A stretch of DNA of 64,000 nucleotides from an uncultured Actinomycetota bacterium (GTDB taxonomy: Bacteria; Actinomycetota; Actinomycetes; Propionibacteriales; Nocardioidaceae). This document shows, in pieces, positions 38,441 to 53,457 of this stretch. The stretch covers positions 1,397 to 65,396 of the forward strand of contig CAWIOB010000011.1 in assembly GCA_963837595.1 (NCBI GenBank). The letters are read 5' to 3'. How positions within the stretch are numbered: position 1 is the first letter of the stretch; each line of letters begins with the position of its first letter. Under the pieces are notes generated by a model. It did not search any database. It saw only the letters and a program-made list of their open reading frames with translations, and was not told the DNA's origin. Position numbers and translations under genes: made by a program.

Positions 38441-39202
38441 ATGATGGAGGTGGTCTCGAACACGGAGTCAGGCGCCCTCCCCGCCTTGAAGCACATCCAG
38501 GTGAGGGAATACGTGCGTGGCCTTGTGGACGGTTGCGAGCCGGGAGCCTCTGCGCCCTCGGAGCGCGAGCTGGTGCAGCGCTTCGGTGTCGCACGGATGA
38601 CCGTTCGGCAGGCCATGGACGCCCTCGTCGGGGAAGGCCTGCTCGTCCGGGTCCCGGGGCGCGGGACCTTCGTCGCCCAGCCGCGCACGCAGCCGGGCAA
38701 GCTGCTGAGCTTCTCCCAGGAGATGACCCAGCGCGGTCTTCTGCCCGAGTCGCAGACACTCATCGCCCGCCGGGAGAAGGCCGGTCCGGGGGTCGCCAAG
38801 GCCCTGAGCCTCACCGAGGGCGACCCGGTCATCCACTGGAAGCGGCTGCGTCGGGCGGACAGTTCACCGGTCTGCGTGGAGGACGCCTACCTCAATGAGG
38901 TGCTGCTGCCGGGCTTCCTGCAGAGTGGCATGCCGACCAGCCTCTACGAGGCCCTCGATGCGCGCGGCCTGCGACCCACGTGGGCAGAGGACTCAGTGTC
39001 GGCCGATCTCGCCACTGCAGAGGAGGCCGCCCACCTCGAGGTCGACCCCGGGACCGCCGTACTCCGTGTCGCCCGCCGTGCCTTGGTCGACGATCGACCC
39101 ATCGAGGTCTCCCGGGCCGTCCTCCGAGGGGACCGCTACACCCTCTGGGTGCAGTTCGACGGTTCCCTCAGGGGTCCGCATCAACGGCGGGGGCGTTGGT
39201 AG
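38441..39202 (+). CDS. GntR/HutC family regulator (UTRA)
   Basis: PSERELVQRFGVARMTVRQA, GRGTFV; leaderless -10 TACAAT at 38429. Confidence 0.92.
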   Translation: MMEVVSNTESGALPALKHIQVREYVRGLVDGCEPGASAPSERELVQRFGVARMTVRQAMDALVGEGLLVRVPGRGTFVAQPRTQPGKLLSFSQEMTQRGLLPESQTLIARREKAGPGVAKALSLTEGDPVIHWKRLRRADSSPVCVEDAYLNEVLLPGFLQSGMPTSLYEALDARGLRPTWAEDSVSADLATAEEAAHLEVDPGTAVLRVARRALVDDRPIEVSRAVLRGDRYTLWVQFDGSLRGPHQRRGRW

Positions 39203-40035
39203 GCGCTGGGTGGGCAGCCGACCAGGCGGCTGAACTCGCGGGCGAAGTGTGCCTGGTCGAACCAGCCGTGGCGGGCGGCCAGATCGGCCAGGGAGCCGTC
39301 GTAGCCATGATCGAGCTCGGTGACGACGTCGTGCATCCGATAGCGGGCGAGCACCCACTTGGGACTTACGCCCACATAGTGGGCGAACAGCCGCTGGAGC
39401 CGCCGAGCGGTCGTCGCGAACCGATCCTCCAGCTGCGCCACCCTGACGAGAGAAGGGTCGTCGAGCATCTCGCCGATGATCTGGAGCACGAACTGGTAGT
39501 CGGCCTCGGGGGTGGTTCCGTCCTGGGCGAGCACCGCATCGACCCGCCGCCGACAGGTGTCCATGTCGAGGGGTGGCCCCAGTGCGTCGAGGGTCGCGTG
39601 GGTGGAGGCGCCCACCACCCCGAGCGCCGGCACGGTGAGGTCTCTCAGCGTCCGGGCGCTGGTGCCGGTCAGACTGGCGAGGCCACCGGGGCGGAACTTC
39701 ACCCCGAACACCCAGCCGACGCCCGCAACATCCACGTCGAAGCGCCGGGTGAGCACCCCGGTCACGACCACGTGCTCCCGGCCGACGCCCGCTCGTCGAT
39801 GGCCCCGTTCGACGCTGAGGGTGCACGCCGGGTGCGGAAGCGTCGAGCTGAGGTACGACGTGCCTGCCGGGAGGTCCCACCTGAGCATCCAGTAGTTCTC
39901 CACCCACGGCGACAAGCTCGGCCCACAGTCGGCGCGCTCGAGCTCGACATAGCGCGCGAACTCGTCGGGCCGCAGCACACCCGCGCCCGTCGTGGTGGCC
40001 TCTGACGCGTTTCTCCAAGCCTCCACGACAGCCAT
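39181..40035 (-). CDS. AraC family regulator
   Basis: GVKFRPGG, RRLQRLFAHYVGVSPKW, GWFDQAHFAREF. Confidence 0.9.
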   Translation of the reverse strand: MAVVEAWRNASEATTTGAGVLRPDEFARYVELERADCGPSLSPWVENYWMLRWDLPAGTSYLSSTLPHPACTLSVERGHRRAGVGREHVVVTGVLTRRFDVDVAGVGWVFGVKFRPGGLASLTGTSARTLRDLTVPALGVVGASTHATLDALGPPLDMDTCRRRVDAVLAQDGTTPEADYQFVLQIIGEMLDDPSLVRVAQLEDRFATTARRLQRLFAHYVGVSPKWVLARYRMHDVVTELDHGYDGSLADLAARHGWFDQAHFAREFSRLVGCPPSAYQRPRR

Positions 40036-40082
40036 CGTAGGAGGCTGGTGGGACACGATCCACCACGACAGAGGAGTCAGCG

Positions 40083-40457
40083 ATGAGCACCCCGGCCGCC
40101 CGCCTTGCCATGGTCACCCTGGACTGCGCCGACCCAGAGGTCTCCGCCACCTTCTGGTCGGGCCTGCTGGGCTGGGAGATCGCCCACGCGGAGCGCGACT
40201 ACGCGATGCTCACGGGGCCGGACCATGCGTTGGGGTTCGGTCGCGTCGAGGACTATGTGGCGCCGGCCTGGCCGAACCAGGGTGGAAGCAAGCAGTTCCA
40301 CTTCGATCTCGCCGTCGCAGACCTCGACGAGGCCGAGCGCATCGCCCTCGAGCTCGGCGCCACCCGCCCCGACGAGCAGCCGGGAGACACCTGGCGTGTG
40401 CTCCTCGACCCCGCTGGTCATCCGTTCTGCCTGACCGATGCCGCGAACTGGGGCTAG
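40083..40457 (+). CDS. VOC/glyoxalase family protein
   Basis: LDCADP, FHFDL, WRVLLDPAGHPFCL. Confidence 0.92.
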   Translation: MSTPAARLAMVTLDCADPEVSATFWSGLLGWEIAHAERDYAMLTGPDHALGFGRVEDYVAPAWPNQGGSKQFHFDLAVADLDEAERIALELGATRPDEQPGDTWRVLLDPAGHPFCLTDAANWG

Positions 40458-40464
40458 CGGCACC

Positions 40465-40809
40465 TCAGGGCAGGGAGCCGAGAGCCGCGACCGTCGCGCC
40501 GGACTCCTCGCACACCCACATCGGGTCCGGTCCACCCAGCTCCGGATGGATGTAGATGGCGTGGGGCTCGTCGGTGTCGCAGGCGGAGCACAGGGGCCAG
40601 CGTCCGACCCGTTCGAGGAGCATGTCCTGGATGTCCTGGGCGACCAGTCCGGCCACGTACGTGCCGCCTTCTGGCCACTGCTCCACCCACCAGCGTCGGG
40701 TGGTGACAGCCTCCTCGAGCAAGGACACGACCTCGGCATCCGCGACCCTGGTGGCCTGCAGGTCGCGCAGCACCAGTGCGCGCGCGACGTACACCGCTGA
40801 CTCATCCAC
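40465..40809 (-). CDS. conserved hypothetical protein with possible Zn site
   Basis: RRWWVEQWPEG..VAGLVAQDIQD..WPLCSAC..H..WVC. Confidence 0.75.
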   Translation of the reverse strand: MDESAVYVARALVLRDLQATRVADAEVVSLLEEAVTTRRWWVEQWPEGGTYVAGLVAQDIQDMLLERVGRWPLCSACDTDEPHAIYIHPELGGPDPMWVCEESGATVAALGSLP

Positions 40810-40857
40810 AGGTTCATCCTGCCGCGATCGGCCAAACCGGCGCCGTAGAGTCTCCCC

Positions 40858-41553
40858 ATGACCTCGACCCCCGAGCCCTCGCTCGAGGTGACGGTCCTGC
40901 ATCCGCGCGACGTCGCAGGGGCCGCGGAGGGCGGGGCCGACCGGCTGTTCCTGATGTCGTCGGCAGGGATGTCTCCCACGCCGGCGGAGGTCAGCGCCGC
41001 GGTGCGCGAGTCCGACCTTCCGCTACGGGTGATGCTGCGTCTCTCCGACCACCGCACCACCGACGGCGGCGAGTTCGCTCGCCTGGTGGCGCTCGCCGAG
41101 GAGTACGTCGCGCTGGGGGCCGAGGGAGTCAGCTTCGGCTTCCTCGACACCGACCTTCAGGTCGACGTCGGCACCTGTCGTGCACTTGCCGACGCCCTTC
41201 CGGGCGTGCCCTGGACGCTCAGTCGCGCCATCGACGACACCCTGGAACCCCAGCGGTCCTGGCGACGCCTCACCGGCCTGCCCGGCCTCGACGCGGTGCA
41301 TTCGGCAGGCTCTCCGCGCGGCCTCGACGGAGGGTACGACGAGCTGCTGGCCCTGGCCGAGTCCGAACCGTCGGTCTCGTCACTGCTCGTGCCCTCGGGT
41401 GGGCTGCGCGCGGAGATGGTGCCGTGGTTCGTGCGCGCCGGGGTGACCCGGTTCCACGTGGACAACCAGGTGCGCCCGGGCGCAACCGAGAAGGCATACG
41501 TCGACGCCGGTCACGTCCGGTCCTGGCGACTCCTGCTCGACGGGACCGCATGA
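40858..41553 (+). CDS. cutC: CutC-like TIM-barrel protein
   Basis: LEVTVL..AAEGGADRL, LRVMLR, FGFLD, RAID. Confidence 0.78.
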   Translation: MTSTPEPSLEVTVLHPRDVAGAAEGGADRLFLMSSAGMSPTPAEVSAAVRESDLPLRVMLRLSDHRTTDGGEFARLVALAEEYVALGAEGVSFGFLDTDLQVDVGTCRALADALPGVPWTLSRAIDDTLEPQRSWRRLTGLPGLDAVHSAGSPRGLDGGYDELLALAESEPSVSSLLVPSGGLRAEMVPWFVRAGVTRFHVDNQVRPGATEKAYVDAGHVRSWRLLLDGTA

Positions 41554-42716
41554 TCCTCATCGACCCGCCCAACGCAGCGGGGCACGGCCGGCTGTGGTCC
41601 CACCTCGCCAGCGATTCGTCGTACGACGAGCTGCATGTGTTCGCCCGTATCATCGGTGTCCCCGAGCGTGGCTTCGACCGCGACCACTACGACGTGCCGG
41701 CCGAGTGGTACGACCGGGTGGTGGCGGCGGGCGCGACCCCGGTGTCGTCGCGCGAGCTGATCGTCCGGATCCGGGCCGCCGGGCTACGCCGTCGCAAGAC
41801 CGAGTCCCTGCGTCCACGCAGAGCTGGTCGGGGGCTGTTGCGCCCACCGTTGCTCAGGCGCGGTGACACCGTGGCCGTGGTCGCGCCGGCCGGGCCGGCC
41901 GAGGCCGCGAGGGTCGCTGCCGGAGCCGACGTGCTGCGGGGGTGGGGCCTGGAGTTGCGCCCGGTCGCAGATCAGCTCGAGGCTGGCTTCGCCTGGCTGG
42001 CCGCGCCCGACGAGGTGCGCGCCGCGGCTCTGCAGGACGCCTGGCTCGATCCTGCGGTCTCGGCCGTCTGGTGCACGCGTGGCGGATTCGGGTCGCACCG
42101 GATCCTGGATCTCCTCGACTGGCGGGCGATGGCCTCGGCCAACCCCAAGCTGCTCGTCGGCTTCTCCGACGTGACGGCCCTGCACCAGGCCTTTGCGGCG
42201 CGCCTCGGCGTGTCCACCGTCCACGGTCCCGTTCTGAGCAGCATCGAGGACCGGCTCCCGGCGACGCGGGCGGCGCTGCGCTCGCTCGTCATGGAGGGCG
42301 TGACAGCCGAGATCACCGGACTGGAGCTGGCGCCGGGCGAGGCGACCGGCGTCCTCGTCGGTGGCAATCTCACGGTGCTCGCGAGTTCGGCGGGGACCTC
42401 GCTGACCCACCCGGCCGCCGACTCGATCGTGGTTCTCGAGGATGTGGGCGAGAGCCCCTACCGCCTCGACCGTTCGCTCACCCAGCTCCTGCGATCAGGG
42501 TGGTTCGACGGTGCTCGGGGCATCGTGCTGGGTGAGTTCAGCGACTGTGGGGATCCGGCGACGGTGGCGGATCTGCTGACGGCACGCCTCCGTCCGCTCG
42601 GCGTACCCCTGCTGGCCGGCGCCCCGATCGGGCACGGCGACAGCAACATCGCGATCCCGCTGGGCGTGCGCGCTCAGCTCGGCGACGGTCGGCTCAGGGT
42701 CGATGCAGTCGGCTGA
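41550..42716 (+). CDS. DUF4031-LD-carboxypeptidase (S66) fusion
   Basis: N-terminal WSHLASDSSYDELH.FA..GFDRDHYDVP; C-terminal VAPAGP, RGGFG, GFSDVT, GGNL, LEDVGE, IGHG. Confidence 0.85.
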   Translation: MILIDPPNAAGHGRLWSHLASDSSYDELHVFARIIGVPERGFDRDHYDVPAEWYDRVVAAGATPVSSRELIVRIRAAGLRRRKTESLRPRRAGRGLLRPPLLRRGDTVAVVAPAGPAEAARVAAGADVLRGWGLELRPVADQLEAGFAWLAAPDEVRAAALQDAWLDPAVSAVWCTRGGFGSHRILDLLDWRAMASANPKLLVGFSDVTALHQAFAARLGVSTVHGPVLSSIEDRLPATRAALRSLVMEGVTAEITGLELAPGEATGVLVGGNLTVLASSAGTSLTHPAADSIVVLEDVGESPYRLDRSLTQLLRSGWFDGARGIVLGEFSDCGDPATVADLLTARLRPLGVPLLAGAPIGHGDSNIAIPLGVRAQLGDGRLRVDAVG

Positions 42717-48214: not shown

Positions 48215-48237
48215 AGCGCCAGCCTAGGCGCTCGGAT

Positions 48238-48278
48238 CGGGGTGACCCCGCCGCGTCTTACGCAGCGGGGCCACCCCG
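48238..48278 (-). terminator. terminator hairpin of the DUF4331 operon
   Basis: ~19-bp stem; plus-strand A-C mismatches become G-U pairs on the minus strand. Confidence 0.7.
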
Positions 48279-48304
48279 TGTCGGTGTTGCGTGCCGCTGT
48301 CCGC

Positions 48305-48748
48305 TCAGACCGGCCACGTGGCCGTGGCCACGTCGCCCCCCGATACCTGAACGGTGAGCAGGACCTCGAGGGTCCCCTTCTCGTAGAGCTCATAGGAGCC
48401 CTCGAGAAGCTCTGGGAACACCAGGGAGGGCACGGCACCTGAACCGATCGGCCGGCTCACCACGGCGACGTGCGGATGCACGCCGTCGTCGTGCGCATGC
48501 GTGTGGTCGTGCGCATGCGTGTGGTCGTGCGGATGCGCGTGCTCGTGCACGTGATGTTCCCCCTGGTTGTGCGACGCCCGAGGATCGTGCCGCAGGTCGG
48601 GGCCTCCGACCGGACGGATCTCCACCTCCAGTCCGTCGAGCTCCGGTGGCATGGTGACCACCAGGGCTCCGACGTCCCCGCCGATGTCGAGCAGGACCGA
48701 GCCCTGGCCGGCGAAGGGATTCTCGGCGTCGACCTGGTCGGCGCTCAT
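48305..48748 (-). CDS. His-rich hypothetical protein
   Basis: VLLDIGGDVGALVV..EVEIRP..HHVHEHAHPHDHTHAHDHTHAHDD..HVAV; ATGA overlap with DUF4331. Confidence 0.82.
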   Translation of the reverse strand: MSADQVDAENPFAGQGSVLLDIGGDVGALVVTMPPELDGLEVEIRPVGGPDLRHDPRASHNQGEHHVHEHAHPHDHTHAHDHTHAHDDGVHPHVAVVSRPIGSGAVPSLVFPELLEGSYELYEKGTLEVLLTVQVSGGDVATATWPV

Positions 48749-50124
48749 GACGCCTTCGTCGTGCCCGGGGTCGTCTGGTAACCACCGCCCGGCGTACCGA
48801 GGTACGGGAACAGCTCCCAGGTCGGCGCGTTGGTGTCGCTCGTGCCGTCCTGGACCGCGCTGGCTGCGCCGTCCGGGGTGAAGCTCGGGTCGACCAACGG
48901 GATCGTCAGACCGGCCACGGCCCGCAACTCGATCGTCACCACGTCGTCGATGATCCGACGGCCGTTCGGGAACCCGGCCGGGTCGCCGGCCACCAGCCCG
49001 AGACTGTTCGGCTTGGCGCTCGGCGGGATGGCCACGTTGAGGCGCAGCATGTCGGAGGCCACCGGGCCGGTGTAGTTCTGGAAGCCCGCGACGACACCCG
49101 ACGGGATGCCCGTGAGCAGGATCGCGTTGAGGTCGGCACGTGGCTTCTTGTACGCCGCCAGCTTCGGGAACACGCCCGGGTAGAGGACCGGCAGCAGGCC
49201 GGCCAGCTCGGGCTTGTTGACGTACTTGGCGTAGCGGCTGTCACCACTCGGCTGGCGAGCGTTCCACTCGTCCTTCTCGGCCATCGGCACGATGACCTCG
49301 TTGAACAGCGGGTTGCCGAGACGGGAGACCTGCTCCCAGGGGCCGTGGCCGACGAACTTGCCCTTGGCCTGGTCGAAGATCCGCGACTTGCGACGGCTGG
49401 CCGTGGCCCAGACGCCGATCACCGCGCCCGGCTTGGAGGCGTCCGTGGGTCGGTCGCGGTTCCGGGTGACCTCGGTGATCGGGACCTGCAACGCGATGGT
49501 GTGCACGTTGTAGGACTGAACCGAGTTGACCCCGTTCATGTTCGGCATCGAGATGAGGTGCGCCTCGTTGAACGGTCGCAGTGCGCCGAGGTCGAAGATG
49601 CTCCCCAGGTCCACGTGGAACGCGTCCGCCCGCTGACCTGCGAAGACCTGCCGACCGCCGGCCAGCTTCTTGATGGCCTGCTTGGACAGCTCGACGTAGT
49701 TCGGGGTGCTCCGCGGCCCGACGTTCACCGGGGGACAGGGAACGTTGCGGGCGATCACCTTAGAGACGCCACCGCGTACTCGGGTCACCGAGTAGTACTG
49801 CGGACGGTTCCAGGTCTCGTCGTCGATCTTGGTGATCGGCCCGGTGTTGTAGAGGAACGTCTTGGCGTTGCGGATCTTGGTGTGGAACCGGAACTGGTAC
49901 TTCAGGTCCGAGGTGCCCTTGCCCTTGTTGGACACGTGGATCTCGTAGAGGACGTCGTCACCGAACTCGTAGAAGTTGGGTCCTCCGTCCGGCTTCTGGA
50001 GAGGGATGAAGTTGGCGATGAGCGTCACGGTGCCGGGTCGTCGGGGGCTGACGAACGCGTAGACGTCGGTGCCGTCGGCGACGGGGTCCTTGCTGATCTC
50101 GGGTGCTTCGCGGTGCGAGGACAT
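48745..50124 (-). CDS. DUF4331 domain protein without a signal peptide
   Basis: MSSHREAP..DVYAF, FAGQRADAF.VDLG, QVSRLGNPL.NEV, DMLRLN, GFPNGRR..DDV, FPYL. Confidence 0.92.
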   Translation of the reverse strand: MSSHREAPEISKDPVADGTDVYAFVSPRRPGTVTLIANFIPLQKPDGGPNFYEFGDDVLYEIHVSNKGKGTSDLKYQFRFHTKIRNAKTFLYNTGPITKIDDETWNRPQYYSVTRVRGGVSKVIARNVPCPPVNVGPRSTPNYVELSKQAIKKLAGGRQVFAGQRADAFHVDLGSIFDLGALRPFNEAHLISMPNMNGVNSVQSYNVHTIALQVPITEVTRNRDRPTDASKPGAVIGVWATASRRKSRIFDQAKGKFVGHGPWEQVSRLGNPLFNEVIVPMAEKDEWNARQPSGDSRYAKYVNKPELAGLLPVLYPGVFPKLAAYKKPRADLNAILLTGIPSGVVAGFQNYTGPVASDMLRLNVAIPPSAKPNSLGLVAGDPAGFPNGRRIIDDVVTIELRAVAGLTIPLVDPSFTPDGAASAVQDGTSDTNAPTWELFPYLGTPGGGYQTTPGTTKAS

Positions 50125-50390
50125 CAGTTGCCTCCTGCTGCGTTGAGGATGCGGTTGACGAGGTCGGCGTCGTGCACTATCACTTCGCGCTCACCGACCA
50201 TCAGCCGCAGCTTGCTGGAGCGGTGGTCCTTCACGTAGGCCACCACGGTCTCCTCTGCACTTCCGGGCTTGCGCTTGGTGTCGCCCGCCTCGGCTGCAGC
50301 CGGCGACCCGAGACCGGCCAGTCCGACCGTCCCTGCTGCGGCTCCCGCGCCGGCCACGGCGAGGAACTTCCTTCTGTTCGTTTCGCTCAT
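50124..50390 (-). CDS. small Tat-signal protein (88 aa)
   Basis: N-RR-K-FL twin-arginine motif, hydrophobic core, AAA/AEA cleavage; RBS AGGAGG; TGATG coupling to DUF4331. Confidence 0.85.
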   Translation of the reverse strand: MSETNRRKFLAVAGAGAAAGTVGLAGLGSPAAAEAGDTKRKPGSAEETVVAYVKDHRSSKLRLMVGEREVIVHDADLVNRILNAAGGN

Positions 50391-50442
50391 CTGTTGTGCC
50401 TCCTGGGATGGGCGGCCTCGATGTGAGGCGCGCCACAGGTGG

Positions 50443-50468
50443 TTCGGAGCCCCGGGCTCGACGGATGG
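50443..50468 (-). promoter_or_regulatory. SigK-type ECF promoter
   Basis: Minus strand CCATCC-N15-CCGAA upstream of the Tat/DUF4331 operon; second copy at 53432-53457. Confidence 0.75.
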
Positions 50469-50567: not shown

Positions 50568-53276
50568 ATGTCGATGACGAAGTCGAGCCGAAGAGTCGCC
50601 TGCTGGGTGGGGAGCGTCACCCTCGGCGTACTCACCGTGATGGCCCCGGTCACGGCAGGGGCCGCTCCTGCCGGCGCGCCGGCCCCGGGAGACGGCGATC
50701 GAGGAGTCTGGCAGGTCTCCAGGATCGACGACGGGACGTGGCAGGTGACCTGGCGTTCGCCGTCGCTCCTGCCGGTGACCTCCGACCGACCCACGATCGT
50801 CGAGGACACCCGGTCCCTGGGGGTGCCGACCATCGCCGACGACGGTCGGACGGTGCAGGTGACCGTACGGTCGGACGTCGCACCGGATCCGCTGGACCTG
50901 GACGTCGTCCTGTCCGGGGACCGTCTCGACAGCATCGGCGACGATCTGAAGGGCACCGCTCCGGCGACCACCGGTCGAGTGGCGCAAACCGTCCTCGGCG
51001 AGGACCCGGCAACCCCCGGGCCCTACGACGTCGTCACCAGCGACTACGAACTGCCCGCTGTGAAGCTGGCGGGCATGCCCGAGCCGATCGAGATGGTCGG
51101 CCACATCGTCGAGCCCGCCCCGGACGCCGTCACCGGCGCCCGGCCGCTGGTCCTGTTCCTGCACGGGCGGCACAGCTACTGCTACAACCCGGCCAACGGC
51201 GACGACGGCTGGGAATGGCCGTGTCGGAGTCCGTTCGAGGAGATCCCGAGCCAGCTCGGCTACGACTACATCCAGAAGCTGCTGGCCTCCCAGGGTTACG
51301 CGACGGTCTCCATCCGCGTCAACGGGATCAATGCTCAGGACTACGCCCTCGACGACGGTGGTGCGGGTGCGCGCGCCCGGATCATCCGCGAGCACCTCGA
51401 CCACTGGGTCTCCCTCGCCGCCGACCATCAGGTCGACCTCTCACGGGTGGTGCTCGTGGGGCACAGTCGCGGAGGTGAGGGGGTGGATCGCGCCTCCATC
51501 CAGATCCCGCTCGACGCGCCCTACCGCGTCGTCGGGCAGGTCCTCATCGCCCCGACCGACTTCGGCACCCAGACCGCCCCCTACGTCCCCACGGTGACGC
51601 TGCTGCCCTACTGCGACGGCGACGTGATCGACCTGCAGGGTCAGCGCTTCACCGACACCGCCCGCGACCTGAGCGTCCGGGACACCGCGCTGAAGAGCTC
51701 GGTGATGGTGATGGGGGCCAACCACAACTTCTTCAACACCGAGTGGACCCCCGGCATCGCTGCGGCCCCTGCCTTCGACGACTGGTTCGGCCCCGAGGCA
51801 GGTGCCTGCGGGACCGCGACCCCGGCACGGCTCAGTCCGGCGGAGCAGCAGGACGTCGGCAAGGCCTGGGTGGCCGGCGCGGTCCACCTGTTCGCCGACG
51901 ACGCCGAGCAGTTCCTGCCGATGTTCGACGGTTCCGGTGCCACCGTGGCCTCGGTCGGCGATGCCGACGTCCGCTCCCACGCACTCGGCGGCGGTCGCGT
52001 GCTGCGGCGCCCCGGGCTCGGCACGGGGTTGTCGCTGGCAGATGGTGCCGAGACGCAGTTCTGCCGTGGGATCAACGAGTTCGGTGGCGCTCACAACATC
52101 TGTGGACGCACCATCCGGGACAGCTACGTCACGCCGCACTGGCCCGCCTCCTACGAGCAGGTGCCCACCCGTCGGGCCTTCGAGATGTCCTGGAGCGCCC
52201 CGGGTCAGTCCGGTGGACTGGTGTTCGCCCATCCTCTGGACCTCAGCGGGGGACGGCTCGAGCTGCGCACCGTCGTCGACCCGCCCCTGGGCGGCGTACG
52301 ACTGCGCGTGCGGGTCACCGACGCCGACGGGGGGAGCTCGACACTCACGCCGGCGGGCGGCGGCCAGCTGCCGGCGCTGCTGCGGGGTCGCGGGCTGTCG
52401 AAGCGCTGGGCGCAGACCCTGCTGGTCGACACGTCCACCGCGACCGGGGTCGACCTCACCCGCATCAGCCAGGTCGACCTGATCGGCGACAGCCCCGACG
52501 GCCGGATCTGGGTCGAGGACCTGGCGGCCGCTCCGTCCCGTCTGGCCCCGGTGCCCGAGGAGCGGTTGCCGCTGGTCAGCATCGGCAGCCTGCGCCAGCA
52601 GGAGGGTGACGGGCCCGGGACGGTCACCGCGCGAGTCCCGTTCACGATCCAAGGTTCCGTGGATCACCCCGCCCGTCTGGTCGCGGTGGTCGCCGGAGAG
52701 GAGCGTGGCAACACGCACCGGTTCGCGATCGACCTGGCGCCGGGACAGACCTCGGGGAGCATCCCGATCGACTACCAGGCGGACACCGCCGACGACTACC
52801 CGCGCACCTACACGCTGGTGGCGGCCTGGGCGACCAAGGAGGCCATGACCGACGACTACCTGGGCCGGCTGGTGGTCGTGGACGACGACCCCAGCCCCAC
52901 CATCACCATCACGCCGGTCTCGCGGACCGTCAAGGAGGGCCAGAACGCCACCTGGCGGATCACACTCTCGGACCCGGTCGACTACGACCTCTACATCGAC
53001 GGGCAGGTGGCGCGCGGACCCAAGCCGGCGCTGAAGGGTTTCGACGTACCACTCTCGTGGCTTCGTGACCACGGTTCCACCCGGCACCGCGCATGGCCGA
53101 TGTGGCGCTCGGGAGCCTGGGTCTACACCGCGGTGAAGCGAGGGAGGACGACAGCGACGATCTCGGTCCCGATCCGCAAGGACGGGGCGAAGGAGCGCCG
53201 TGAGGCGTTGACGGTGGACTTCCACATCAACCGCCGCACCGTCACCCGAACCATCAGGGTGGCCGCCTCGCGCTGA
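50568..53276 (+). CDS. secreted alpha/beta hydrolase with C-terminal Ig/Calx-beta-like domains
   Basis: Signal peptide; LVLFLHGRH, nucleophile GHSRGG, CDGDV, GANHNFFN. Confidence 0.85.
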   Translation: MSMTKSSRRVACWVGSVTLGVLTVMAPVTAGAAPAGAPAPGDGDRGVWQVSRIDDGTWQVTWRSPSLLPVTSDRPTIVEDTRSLGVPTIADDGRTVQVTVRSDVAPDPLDLDVVLSGDRLDSIGDDLKGTAPATTGRVAQTVLGEDPATPGPYDVVTSDYELPAVKLAGMPEPIEMVGHIVEPAPDAVTGARPLVLFLHGRHSYCYNPANGDDGWEWPCRSPFEEIPSQLGYDYIQKLLASQGYATVSIRVNGINAQDYALDDGGAGARARIIREHLDHWVSLAADHQVDLSRVVLVGHSRGGEGVDRASIQIPLDAPYRVVGQVLIAPTDFGTQTAPYVPTVTLLPYCDGDVIDLQGQRFTDTARDLSVRDTALKSSVMVMGANHNFFNTEWTPGIAAAPAFDDWFGPEAGACGTATPARLSPAEQQDVGKAWVAGAVHLFADDAEQFLPMFDGSGATVASVGDADVRSHALGGGRVLRRPGLGTGLSLADGAETQFCRGINEFGGAHNICGRTIRDSYVTPHWPASYEQVPTRRAFEMSWSAPGQSGGLVFAHPLDLSGGRLELRTVVDPPLGGVRLRVRVTDADGGSSTLTPAGGGQLPALLRGRGLSKRWAQTLLVDTSTATGVDLTRISQVDLIGDSPDGRIWVEDLAAAPSRLAPVPEERLPLVSIGSLRQQEGDGPGTVTARVPFTIQGSVDHPARLVAVVAGEERGNTHRFAIDLAPGQTSGSIPIDYQADTADDYPRTYTLVAAWATKEAMTDDYLGRLVVVDDDPSPTITITPVSRTVKEGQNATWRITLSDPVDYDLYIDGQVARGPKPALKGFDVPLSWLRDHGSTRHRAWPMWRSGAWVYTAVKRGRTTATISVPIRKDGAKERREALTVDFHINRRTVTRTIRVAASR

Positions 53277-53431: not shown

Positions 53432-53457
53432 TTCGGAGCCCCTCGTGGCGCGGATGG
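53432..53457 (-). promoter_or_regulatory. SigK-type ECF promoter (second copy)
   Basis: CCATCC-N15-CCGAA; shares ACCCATCCG and GGGGCTCCGAA with the 50443-50468 copy. Confidence 0.7.

Follow-up and report, generated by a model that had tools for sequence, protein, structure and literature searches.

The results presented here reveal a three-gene operon in the window, a 64,000-nucleotide stretch of contig CAWIOB010000011.1 from an uncultured actinobacterium of the Nocardioidaceae. The operon encodes a small protein with a twin-arginine translocation (Tat) signal peptide (the mini-protein, gene 1), a member of the DUF4331 family (gene 2) and a His-rich protein (gene 3). The three genes co-occur strictly across actinobacterial genomes, the Tat motif of the mini-protein is under selection, the predicted mature N-terminus of DUF4331 is the same by two maturation routes, and the promoter motif is common to the trio and the sigK operon. 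It is fairly probable that the trio is a module of the SigK regulon and exports folded DUF4331 piggy-back, with the mini-protein as its escort through the Tat translocase.

A first-pass annotation of the sequence had described three translationally coupled genes with TGATG and ATGA overlaps, the first encoding mostly a twin-arginine signal followed by about 50 mature residues, the second starting directly at MSSHREAP and the third encoding a His-rich protein. Each of these points was borne out. The gene 1/gene 2 junction is CAACTGATGT, a TGATG with an overlap of 1 nt, and the gene 2/gene 3 junction is CGTCATGAGC, an ATGA with an overlap of 4 nt. A GGAGG for gene 2 sits within the 3' end of gene 1. 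The open reading frame (ORF) of gene 2 begins at MSSHREAP, and the product of gene 3 contains 16 His in 147 residues, 15 of them within residues 54-93. The mini-protein matches the Tat signal model TIGR01409 with 19.5 bits (cut-off 16.7) and has a mature part of about 50 residues.

Co-occurrence of the three genes was assessed in a class-wide sample of 401 Actinomycetes genomes, with 40 loci drawn for inspection. The 401-genome tallies include the unpublished genomes G006, G014, G029, G031, G042, G262 and G372; the inspected loci are from other genomes. DUF4331 is encoded in 157 of the 401 genomes and the mini-protein in 33, and each strong mini-protein match lies directly upstream of a DUF4331 gene. 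All 25 signal-less DUF4331 genes in the inspected loci, including five whose trio had been overlooked by the first screen, have a mini gene upstream and a His-rich gene downstream. None of 18 signal-bearing DUF4331 genes has either. Loci found with the profile of the His-rich protein give the same result: DUF4331 is directly upstream in 80 of 80, and the mini gene is present in all 75 loci with enough contig, mostly with a stop-to-start gap of ~1 nt. The link between signal-less DUF4331 and the mini-protein, which the first-pass annotation had singled out as a test of its proposal, is thus found at 25/25 and 75/75 loci versus 0/18 signal-bearing genes. The trio is carried by several actinobacterial families, about 100 loci in all, a recurrence that places the arrangement far beyond chance. 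The divergent signal-less representatives P0260, P0266 and P0371 likewise carry the mini gene. The only exception to the co-occurrence rule is P0247 (L146:2035-3576), a signal-less paralogue without a mini or His-rich neighbour, whose N-terminus has decayed to MTTHRAGG with loss of SSHREAP.

The trio was found in just 3 of 17 sampled same-genus genomes besides its own genome, a patchy distribution that marks it as an accessory module. Among named organisms, Nocardioides species have the proteins closest to those of the window. Cultivable strains with the trio include Nocardioides kribbensis DSM 16314, N. psychrotolerans CGMCC 1.11156 and Pedococcus sp. KACC 23699. No conserved flanking genes were found among 67 trio loci beyond local synteny, and no NiCoT or HupE permease adjoins the trio in the loci examined. 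In a single case among the examined loci, Nocardioides sp. TRM66260-LWL (L080:4685-5270), a gene for a GDT1/UPF0016-like membrane protein follows the His-rich gene.

The product of gene 2 matches PF14224 (DUF4331) with 472.1 bits (cut-off 27; E 2.6e-141) over profile positions 1-421 of 421 and has no extension or signal ahead of M-SSHREAP. The first-pass annotation had held that DUF4331 proteins usually carry a signal peptide before SSHREAP, and a survey of the 150 best DUF4331 cluster representatives agrees: among the 122 with a readable N-terminus, 87 are signal-bearing and 32 are signal-less with an M-SSHREAP start. In the 87 signal-bearing proteins the signal ends right before SSHREAP; the residue at -1 is Ala in 80, Gly in 5 and Ser in 2, and the residue at -3 is small. 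A twin arginine is present in 15 of these 87 signals, so the family is likely exported mostly by the general secretory (Sec) pathway. The prevalence of signals in the family suggests that gene 2 DUF4331 also acts outside the cytoplasm.

The mature tripeptide Ser-Ser-His is present in 116 of the 122 representatives. Methionine aminopeptidase is expected to remove an initiator Met that precedes Ser. With signal peptidase cutting before SSHREAP in the one group and Met excision in the other, both maturation routes would expose an identical Ser-Ser-His end. Residues S3, H4, A7, P8, D17 and D20 are invariant in 51 diverse DUF4331 sequences. A free amine followed by X-X-His is the amino-terminal Cu(II)- and Ni(II)-binding (ATCUN) arrangement. 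The mature end of DUF4331 has the His at position 3 that defines this arrangement, with a residue other than Pro at position 2, and that His (H4) is invariant; the tip is ATCUN-like and may bind metal.

The DUF4331 family comprises >5,500 clusters at 50% identity, and no mention of DUF4331, PF14224 or SSHREAP was found in the literature searched. The AlphaFold2 (AF2) model is confident (predicted local distance difference test, pLDDT, 91.9; predicted template modelling score 0.92) and consists of a large beta-sandwich and a helical sub-domain. A PDB sequence search with DUF4331 returned no homologue. With the whole 459-residue model, Foldseek returned no convincing solved relative (E at least 0.007), and the best VIA-align match (Sas6, Z 7.2) is inside the uninformative range of that tool; a sub-domain may still have a known fold. 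Cys residues occupy alignment positions 130 and 133 (CPPC-like) in roughly half of the signal-less DUF4331 proteins and in none of the signal-bearing ones; the same site in the gene 2 product is CPPV (residues 130-133, window ~49726-49737).

The mini-protein family has 586 members, all of about 83-99 residues. Among 100 orthologues the Tat consensus is S-R-R-x-F-L, with R6 in 99, R7 in 97, Phe or Leu at position +2 in 94 and Leu or Ile at +3 in 96; the Tat motif is under selection. About 70% of them have an A-x-A site after the Ala/Gly-rich core. In the mature part, V48, A49, G64, E67, D72 and L75 are invariant or nearly so across 100 loci, a conserved core that is too small for an enzyme. The mini-protein falls under the cut-off of the second Tat signal model, PF10518, and in a Pfam scan with E up to 0.01 its only matches were TAT_signal and UCR_Fe-S_N, itself a Tat signal. 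The mature domain has no Pfam match, the protein has no PDB sequence homologue, and its look-alikes in the ESM Atlas are unnamed clusters, none informative. No mini-protein or His-rich domain was found inside signal-bearing DUF4331 proteins. The source genome encodes a Tat translocase (TatC, PF00902; G000:C1:463457-464104, E 8.4e-64).

The first-pass annotation had also read a promoter CCATCC-N15-CCGAA upstream of gene 1 and had pointed to sigK-rskA as the genes to locate elsewhere in the genome. The promoter is present and reads CCATCC-N15-CCGAAC; a scan for canonical sigma-70 promoters at the locus found no match. An RskA-type anti-sigma factor gene (RskA_C, 88.3 bits; C7:41135-41536) is preceded by a gene for a sigma factor of the extracytoplasmic function (ECF) class, and that by a gene for a fasciclin (Mpt83-like) lipoprotein. 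This mpt83-sigK-rskA cassette lies behind the same promoter motif, CCAATCC-N15-CCGAAT (C7:39404), about 55 nt before the fasciclin gene. A motif of the form CCA(A)TCC-N15-NCGAAN precedes the fasciclin-sigK-rskA cassette in 5/5 named trio-carrying genomes. Judged by the motif it shares with the sigK operon of its own genome, the trio promoter is SigK-type. At 40 of 75 trio loci the motif is found at -73 to -125 upstream of the mini gene, an enrichment of ~170-fold (40 matches in about 22 kb versus 13 in the remaining ~1.25 Mb).

Several further observations concern the SigK motif. Upstream of signal-bearing actinobacterial DUF4331 genes (L036-L051) the same SigK-type motif occurs in 11 of 17 cases, which suggests that SigK-type control extends to DUF4331 genes at large. 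These signal-bearing genes are often tandem paralogues followed by a gene for a membrane-anchored TPR protein. A gene for an MsrP/YedY-like molybdopterin oxidoreductase lies directly before the fasciclin-sigK-rskA cassette (G000:C7:~38800-41600), as it does in the five named genomes. In the window, a second exact motif (CCATCC-N15-CCGAAT, 53432-53457, minus strand) has GGGGCTCCGAA in common with the trio promoter; it lies between a convergent gene for a 902-residue protein and a helicase-like gene, is antisense into the 3' end of the former, and has no ORF after it. A CCATCC-N15-CCGAAC at G000:C10:84513-84538 (plus strand) stands directly before an ORF for an alpha/beta-hydrolase-like protein, followed by a TetR-like gene, and may mark a SigK target. 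Matches at C6:319363, C6:138314, C10:181014 and C13:97945 were rejected as regulon members; they look intragenic or have no downstream gene.

The His-rich protein belongs to a family of 1411 members and matches nothing in Pfam or NCBIfam. In its AF2 model the beta-sandwich has a pLDDT of about 90, and the His loop is a disordered excursion of low confidence. Orthologues differ in the length of the loop but share H82 and H93 with few or no exceptions. The model also leaves the invariant N-terminal motif ENPFAGQG..LDIGGD disordered (pLDDT 45-51), a typical feature of peptides that become ordered on binding a partner. Fold searches with the model gave nothing more specific than generic sandwiches of the CnaB, pilin or transthyretin type (Z no higher than 7.9), and PDB sequence matches are to His-rich metal loops only (e.g. 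PA4063, ZnuA; E at least 0.01). Kinship with the His-rich metallochaperones HypB, SlyD, UreE, CooJ and Hpn was considered and rejected: there is no Pfam or NCBIfam match to them, and the PDB profile matches are confined to the low-complexity His loop.

What we infer from these features is complex formation by the trio proteins, export, metal binding and the biochemical function. Three elements of a Tat hitchhiker system are in place: a Tat signal on the mini-protein, TatC in the genome and a signal-less DUF4331. In the proposed mechanism, SigK-RNA polymerase would start transcription at CCATCC-N15-CCGAAC, and translational coupling would lead to the three products being made together. DUF4331 would fold in the cytoplasm and shed its initiator Met, leaving the Ser-Ser-His N-terminus of its signal-bearing relatives, and would dock on the mature domain (~50 residues) of the mini-protein. 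TatABC would then translocate the folded complex by virtue of the mini-protein's twin-arginine signal. As an obligatory partner, the His-rich beta-sandwich protein would act either as a cytoplasmic donor that loads ions of the Cu/Ni type before export or as a third, co-exported subunit.

Several points weigh against this mechanism. Inheritance of three genes as one operon within related lineages is no independent sign that their products interact. With the pattern used, the promoter motif is present at only about half of the trio loci. Most signal-bearing DUF4331 proteins have Sec-like signals, which means that the DUF4331 fold is generally independent of folding or loading in the cytoplasm, and a Tat route would call for some other reason. 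The signs of a metal role are limited to a His loop of variable length and the X-X-His N-terminus. Finally, the Ser-Ser pair is conserved beyond the needs of an ATCUN site; because both serines are strongly conserved, more than simple ATCUN chemistry is suggested, and the N-terminus may do something else.

Other explanations of the trio were also weighed. DUF4331 and the His-rich protein could form a cytoplasmic pair, as a metal buffer or an enzyme, with the mini-protein exported alone for a separate job and the three genes merely co-regulated. His-rich metal-storage proteins such as HypB, SlyD and Hpn are typically cytoplasmic, as would suit this explanation, and neither DUF4331 nor the His-rich protein has an export signal of its own. 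There is also a precedent in MelD1/MelD2, an intracellular pair of the melC type (PMC2758597). However, the MelD helper has lost its Tat motif, whereas the twin arginine of the mini-protein is kept in 97-99% of orthologues. The exported 50-residue domain is never found apart from DUF4331 in ~100 loci and is translationally coupled to it, while other DUF4331 proteins are exported, 87 of 122 being signal-bearing, and the trio DUF4331 keeps a mature N-terminus identical to that of the exported forms. A cytoplasmic pair therefore seems unlikely. A membrane tether, in which Tat export takes place but the mini-protein stays uncleaved or bound and keeps DUF4331 attached to the outer side of the membrane, seems no more likely. 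Such a tether would replace the C-terminal anchors or extensions of longer relatives: the trio DUF4331 proteins are short (about 455-480 residues), and many signal-bearing relatives have 50-300 extra C-terminal residues. The A-x-A motif is also present in only about 70% of mini-proteins. Nevertheless, most mini-proteins have an A-x-A and then a polar linker, consistent with cleavage by signal peptidase I, and the mini-protein has neither a lipobox nor a second hydrophobic segment.

Among the outcomes that would undo its proposal, the first-pass annotation had named the case that genes 1 and 2 are a single frameshifted ORF. Four database proteins do seem to fuse the mini-protein to DUF4331. These are metagenome entries, the only fusions in 5.8 billion proteins, and their read-through junctions and out-of-frame tails mark them as assembly errors. 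About 100 loci, some of them in complete genomes, conserve the stop codon of gene 1, the M/V-SSHREAP start of gene 2 and a separate product of 83-99 residues, and nothing corresponding to the mature domain of the mini-protein was found in signal-bearing DUF4331 proteins. An artefact is scarcely credible on this evidence, and piggy-back export of DUF4331 on the mini-protein is the preferred explanation.

Tat hitchhiking with a helper and regulation by an ECF sigma factor are known already; what is new is the protein families involved and the minimal escort. The closest parallel is the melC operon of Streptomyces, in which the apotyrosinase MelC2 is secreted by hitchhiking on MelC1, which is also needed for copper insertion (PMC2758597). 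Like the trio, melC is an actinobacterial operon in which a small upstream gene carries the only (Tat) signal and a larger, signal-less gene lies downstream (PMC2758597). Unlike melC, the trio has a separate His-rich third protein and SigK-type control. The mature part of the mini-protein, at ~50 residues and with no His or Cys to suggest a metal site, is also unlike MelC1, and the cargo is a beta-sandwich of unknown function in place of the type-3 copper enzyme MelC2. Homology of the mini-protein to MelC1 was rejected, since the Pfam scan matches Tat signals only, and the resemblance is functional only. In MelD the helper lacks a Tat motif and the cargo is intracellular (PMC2758597); the mini-protein, in contrast, retains its Tat motif almost without exception.

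In Escherichia coli, hydrogenase-2 (HybO/HybC) and PaoABC each have one subunit with a Tat signal. It serves as escort for subunits that lack a signal, HybC in the first case and both PaoB and PaoC in the second, and the escorted subunits assemble with their cofactors in the cytoplasm (PMC4273604). By analogy with PaoABC, the trio could be a ternary case of hitchhiking. The signal-bearing subunit in HybO/HybC and PaoABC is a full redox subunit with cofactors, whereas the mini-protein consists of little more than a signal and a proposed docking module; there is no homology, and the trio has no known cofactor. Metal sites formed from N-termini that are exposed by signal cleavage are described for the histidine brace of lytic polysaccharide monooxygenases (LPMOs) and for DUF4198, DUF6702 and 'anglerase' domains; DUF4331 is not covered there (PMC12537917). 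As in those families, the mature N-terminus of DUF4331 is fixed exactly at the cleavage site with an invariant His near the free amine. Unlike LPMO-type families, in which the His is residue 1, the His of DUF4331 is residue 3 of Ser-Ser-His, in the ATCUN arrangement.

The SigK-RskA (ECF19) cassette is found in Mycobacterium and also in Yersinia, and the mpt83-sigK-rskA cassette with its conserved SigK site was described by Veyrier and colleagues (PMC7509140). Like the mycobacterial cassette, that of the genome analysed here has a fasciclin lipoprotein, an ECF sigma factor and an RskA_C anti-sigma factor. The described mycobacterial SigK targets are mpt70/mpt83 and the sigK loci (PMC4105308), and DUF4331 is absent among them.

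The coordinates of the trio and its elements are collected in the table below. The first-pass annotation had given the operon its own terminator, which corresponds to a hairpin downstream. The 96-nt stretch that includes it (48215-48310) has a folding energy of -60 kcal/mol (z = -5.1), and none of 200 shuffled sequences was equally stable. A scan for canonical terminators did not call the hairpin, because it lacks a U tract. Beyond the trio are serA downstream and, upstream, the divergent gene for a secreted protein of 902 residues (window 50568-53276, plus strand), which has a signal-like N-terminal segment and only a sub-threshold match to chlorophyllase/alpha-beta-hydrolase. This gene is not conserved beside the trio in other loci. 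The source assembly is 3.0 Mb and 79% complete.

Table. Features of the trio locus, given as positions in the window.
Feature	Position	Strand	Basis
SigK-type ECF promoter: CCATCC (50463-50468), 15-nt spacer, CCGAAC (50442-50447), about 50 nt before gene 1 start; assigned by motif	50442-50468	minus	
Ribosome-binding site AGGAGG of gene 1	50399-50404	minus	direct sequence reading
Gene 1, mini-protein, 88 aa	50124-50390	minus	ORF reading
Twin-arginine signal peptide, residues 1-35: N-R-R-K-F-L motif, Ala/Gly h-region, A-E-A cleavage motif	50286-50390	minus	
Mini-protein mature domain, ~53 residues, core VVAYV...GEREV.V.D..L..R, and stop codon; proposed escort/docking module	50124-50285	minus	
Gene 2, DUF4331 protein, 459 aa, N-terminus MSSHREAP	48745-50124	minus	ORF reading
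Gene 3, His-rich protein, 147 aa	48305-48748	minus	ORF reading
Conserved N-terminal motif ENPFAGQG..LDIGGD, then seven-strand beta-sandwich	in gene 3, 48305-48748	minus	alignment and AF2
His-rich loop, residues 60-93, HxH repeats, inserted between sandwich strands	48470-48571	minus	
Hairpin, 19 bp, GC-rich, 27 nt past gene 3 stop; probable terminator without U tract	48238-48278	minus	

Finally, the trio provides a testable handle on DUF4331: a cargo with an exact N-terminus that two maturation routes preserve, a minimal escort that seemingly exists only to lend a Tat signal, and a His-rich partner. If the proposed mechanism is correct, the trio would be a new case, natural and widespread, in which a dedicated adaptor serves piggy-back export by Tat, of use to Tat research and to secretion engineering in actinobacteria. 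It would also tie DUF4331, an unstudied family of envelope proteins, to the SigK/RskA switch, and the SigK regulon of Nocardioidaceae, Intrasporangiaceae and further families would be enlarged by the trio. Both the physiological role of SigK/RskA and the signal that induces it are still unknown (PMC7509140). A bolder version of the mechanism, which is doubtful but worth stating, is that a cytoplasmic His-rich donor loads Cu or Ni onto the Ser-Ser-His tip of DUF4331, that the cargo-specific minimal Tat escort then exports it, that DUF4331 is a widespread core output of SigK/RskA, and that the signal sensed through SigK is the trace-metal or metal-redox status of the envelope. DUF4331 is taken as a core output in this version because signal-less and signal-bearing genes both lie behind SigK-type promoters. 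That envelope status would then be the long-sought signal of the SigK regulon, which has Mpt70/Mpt83 of the tubercle bacillus among its members.

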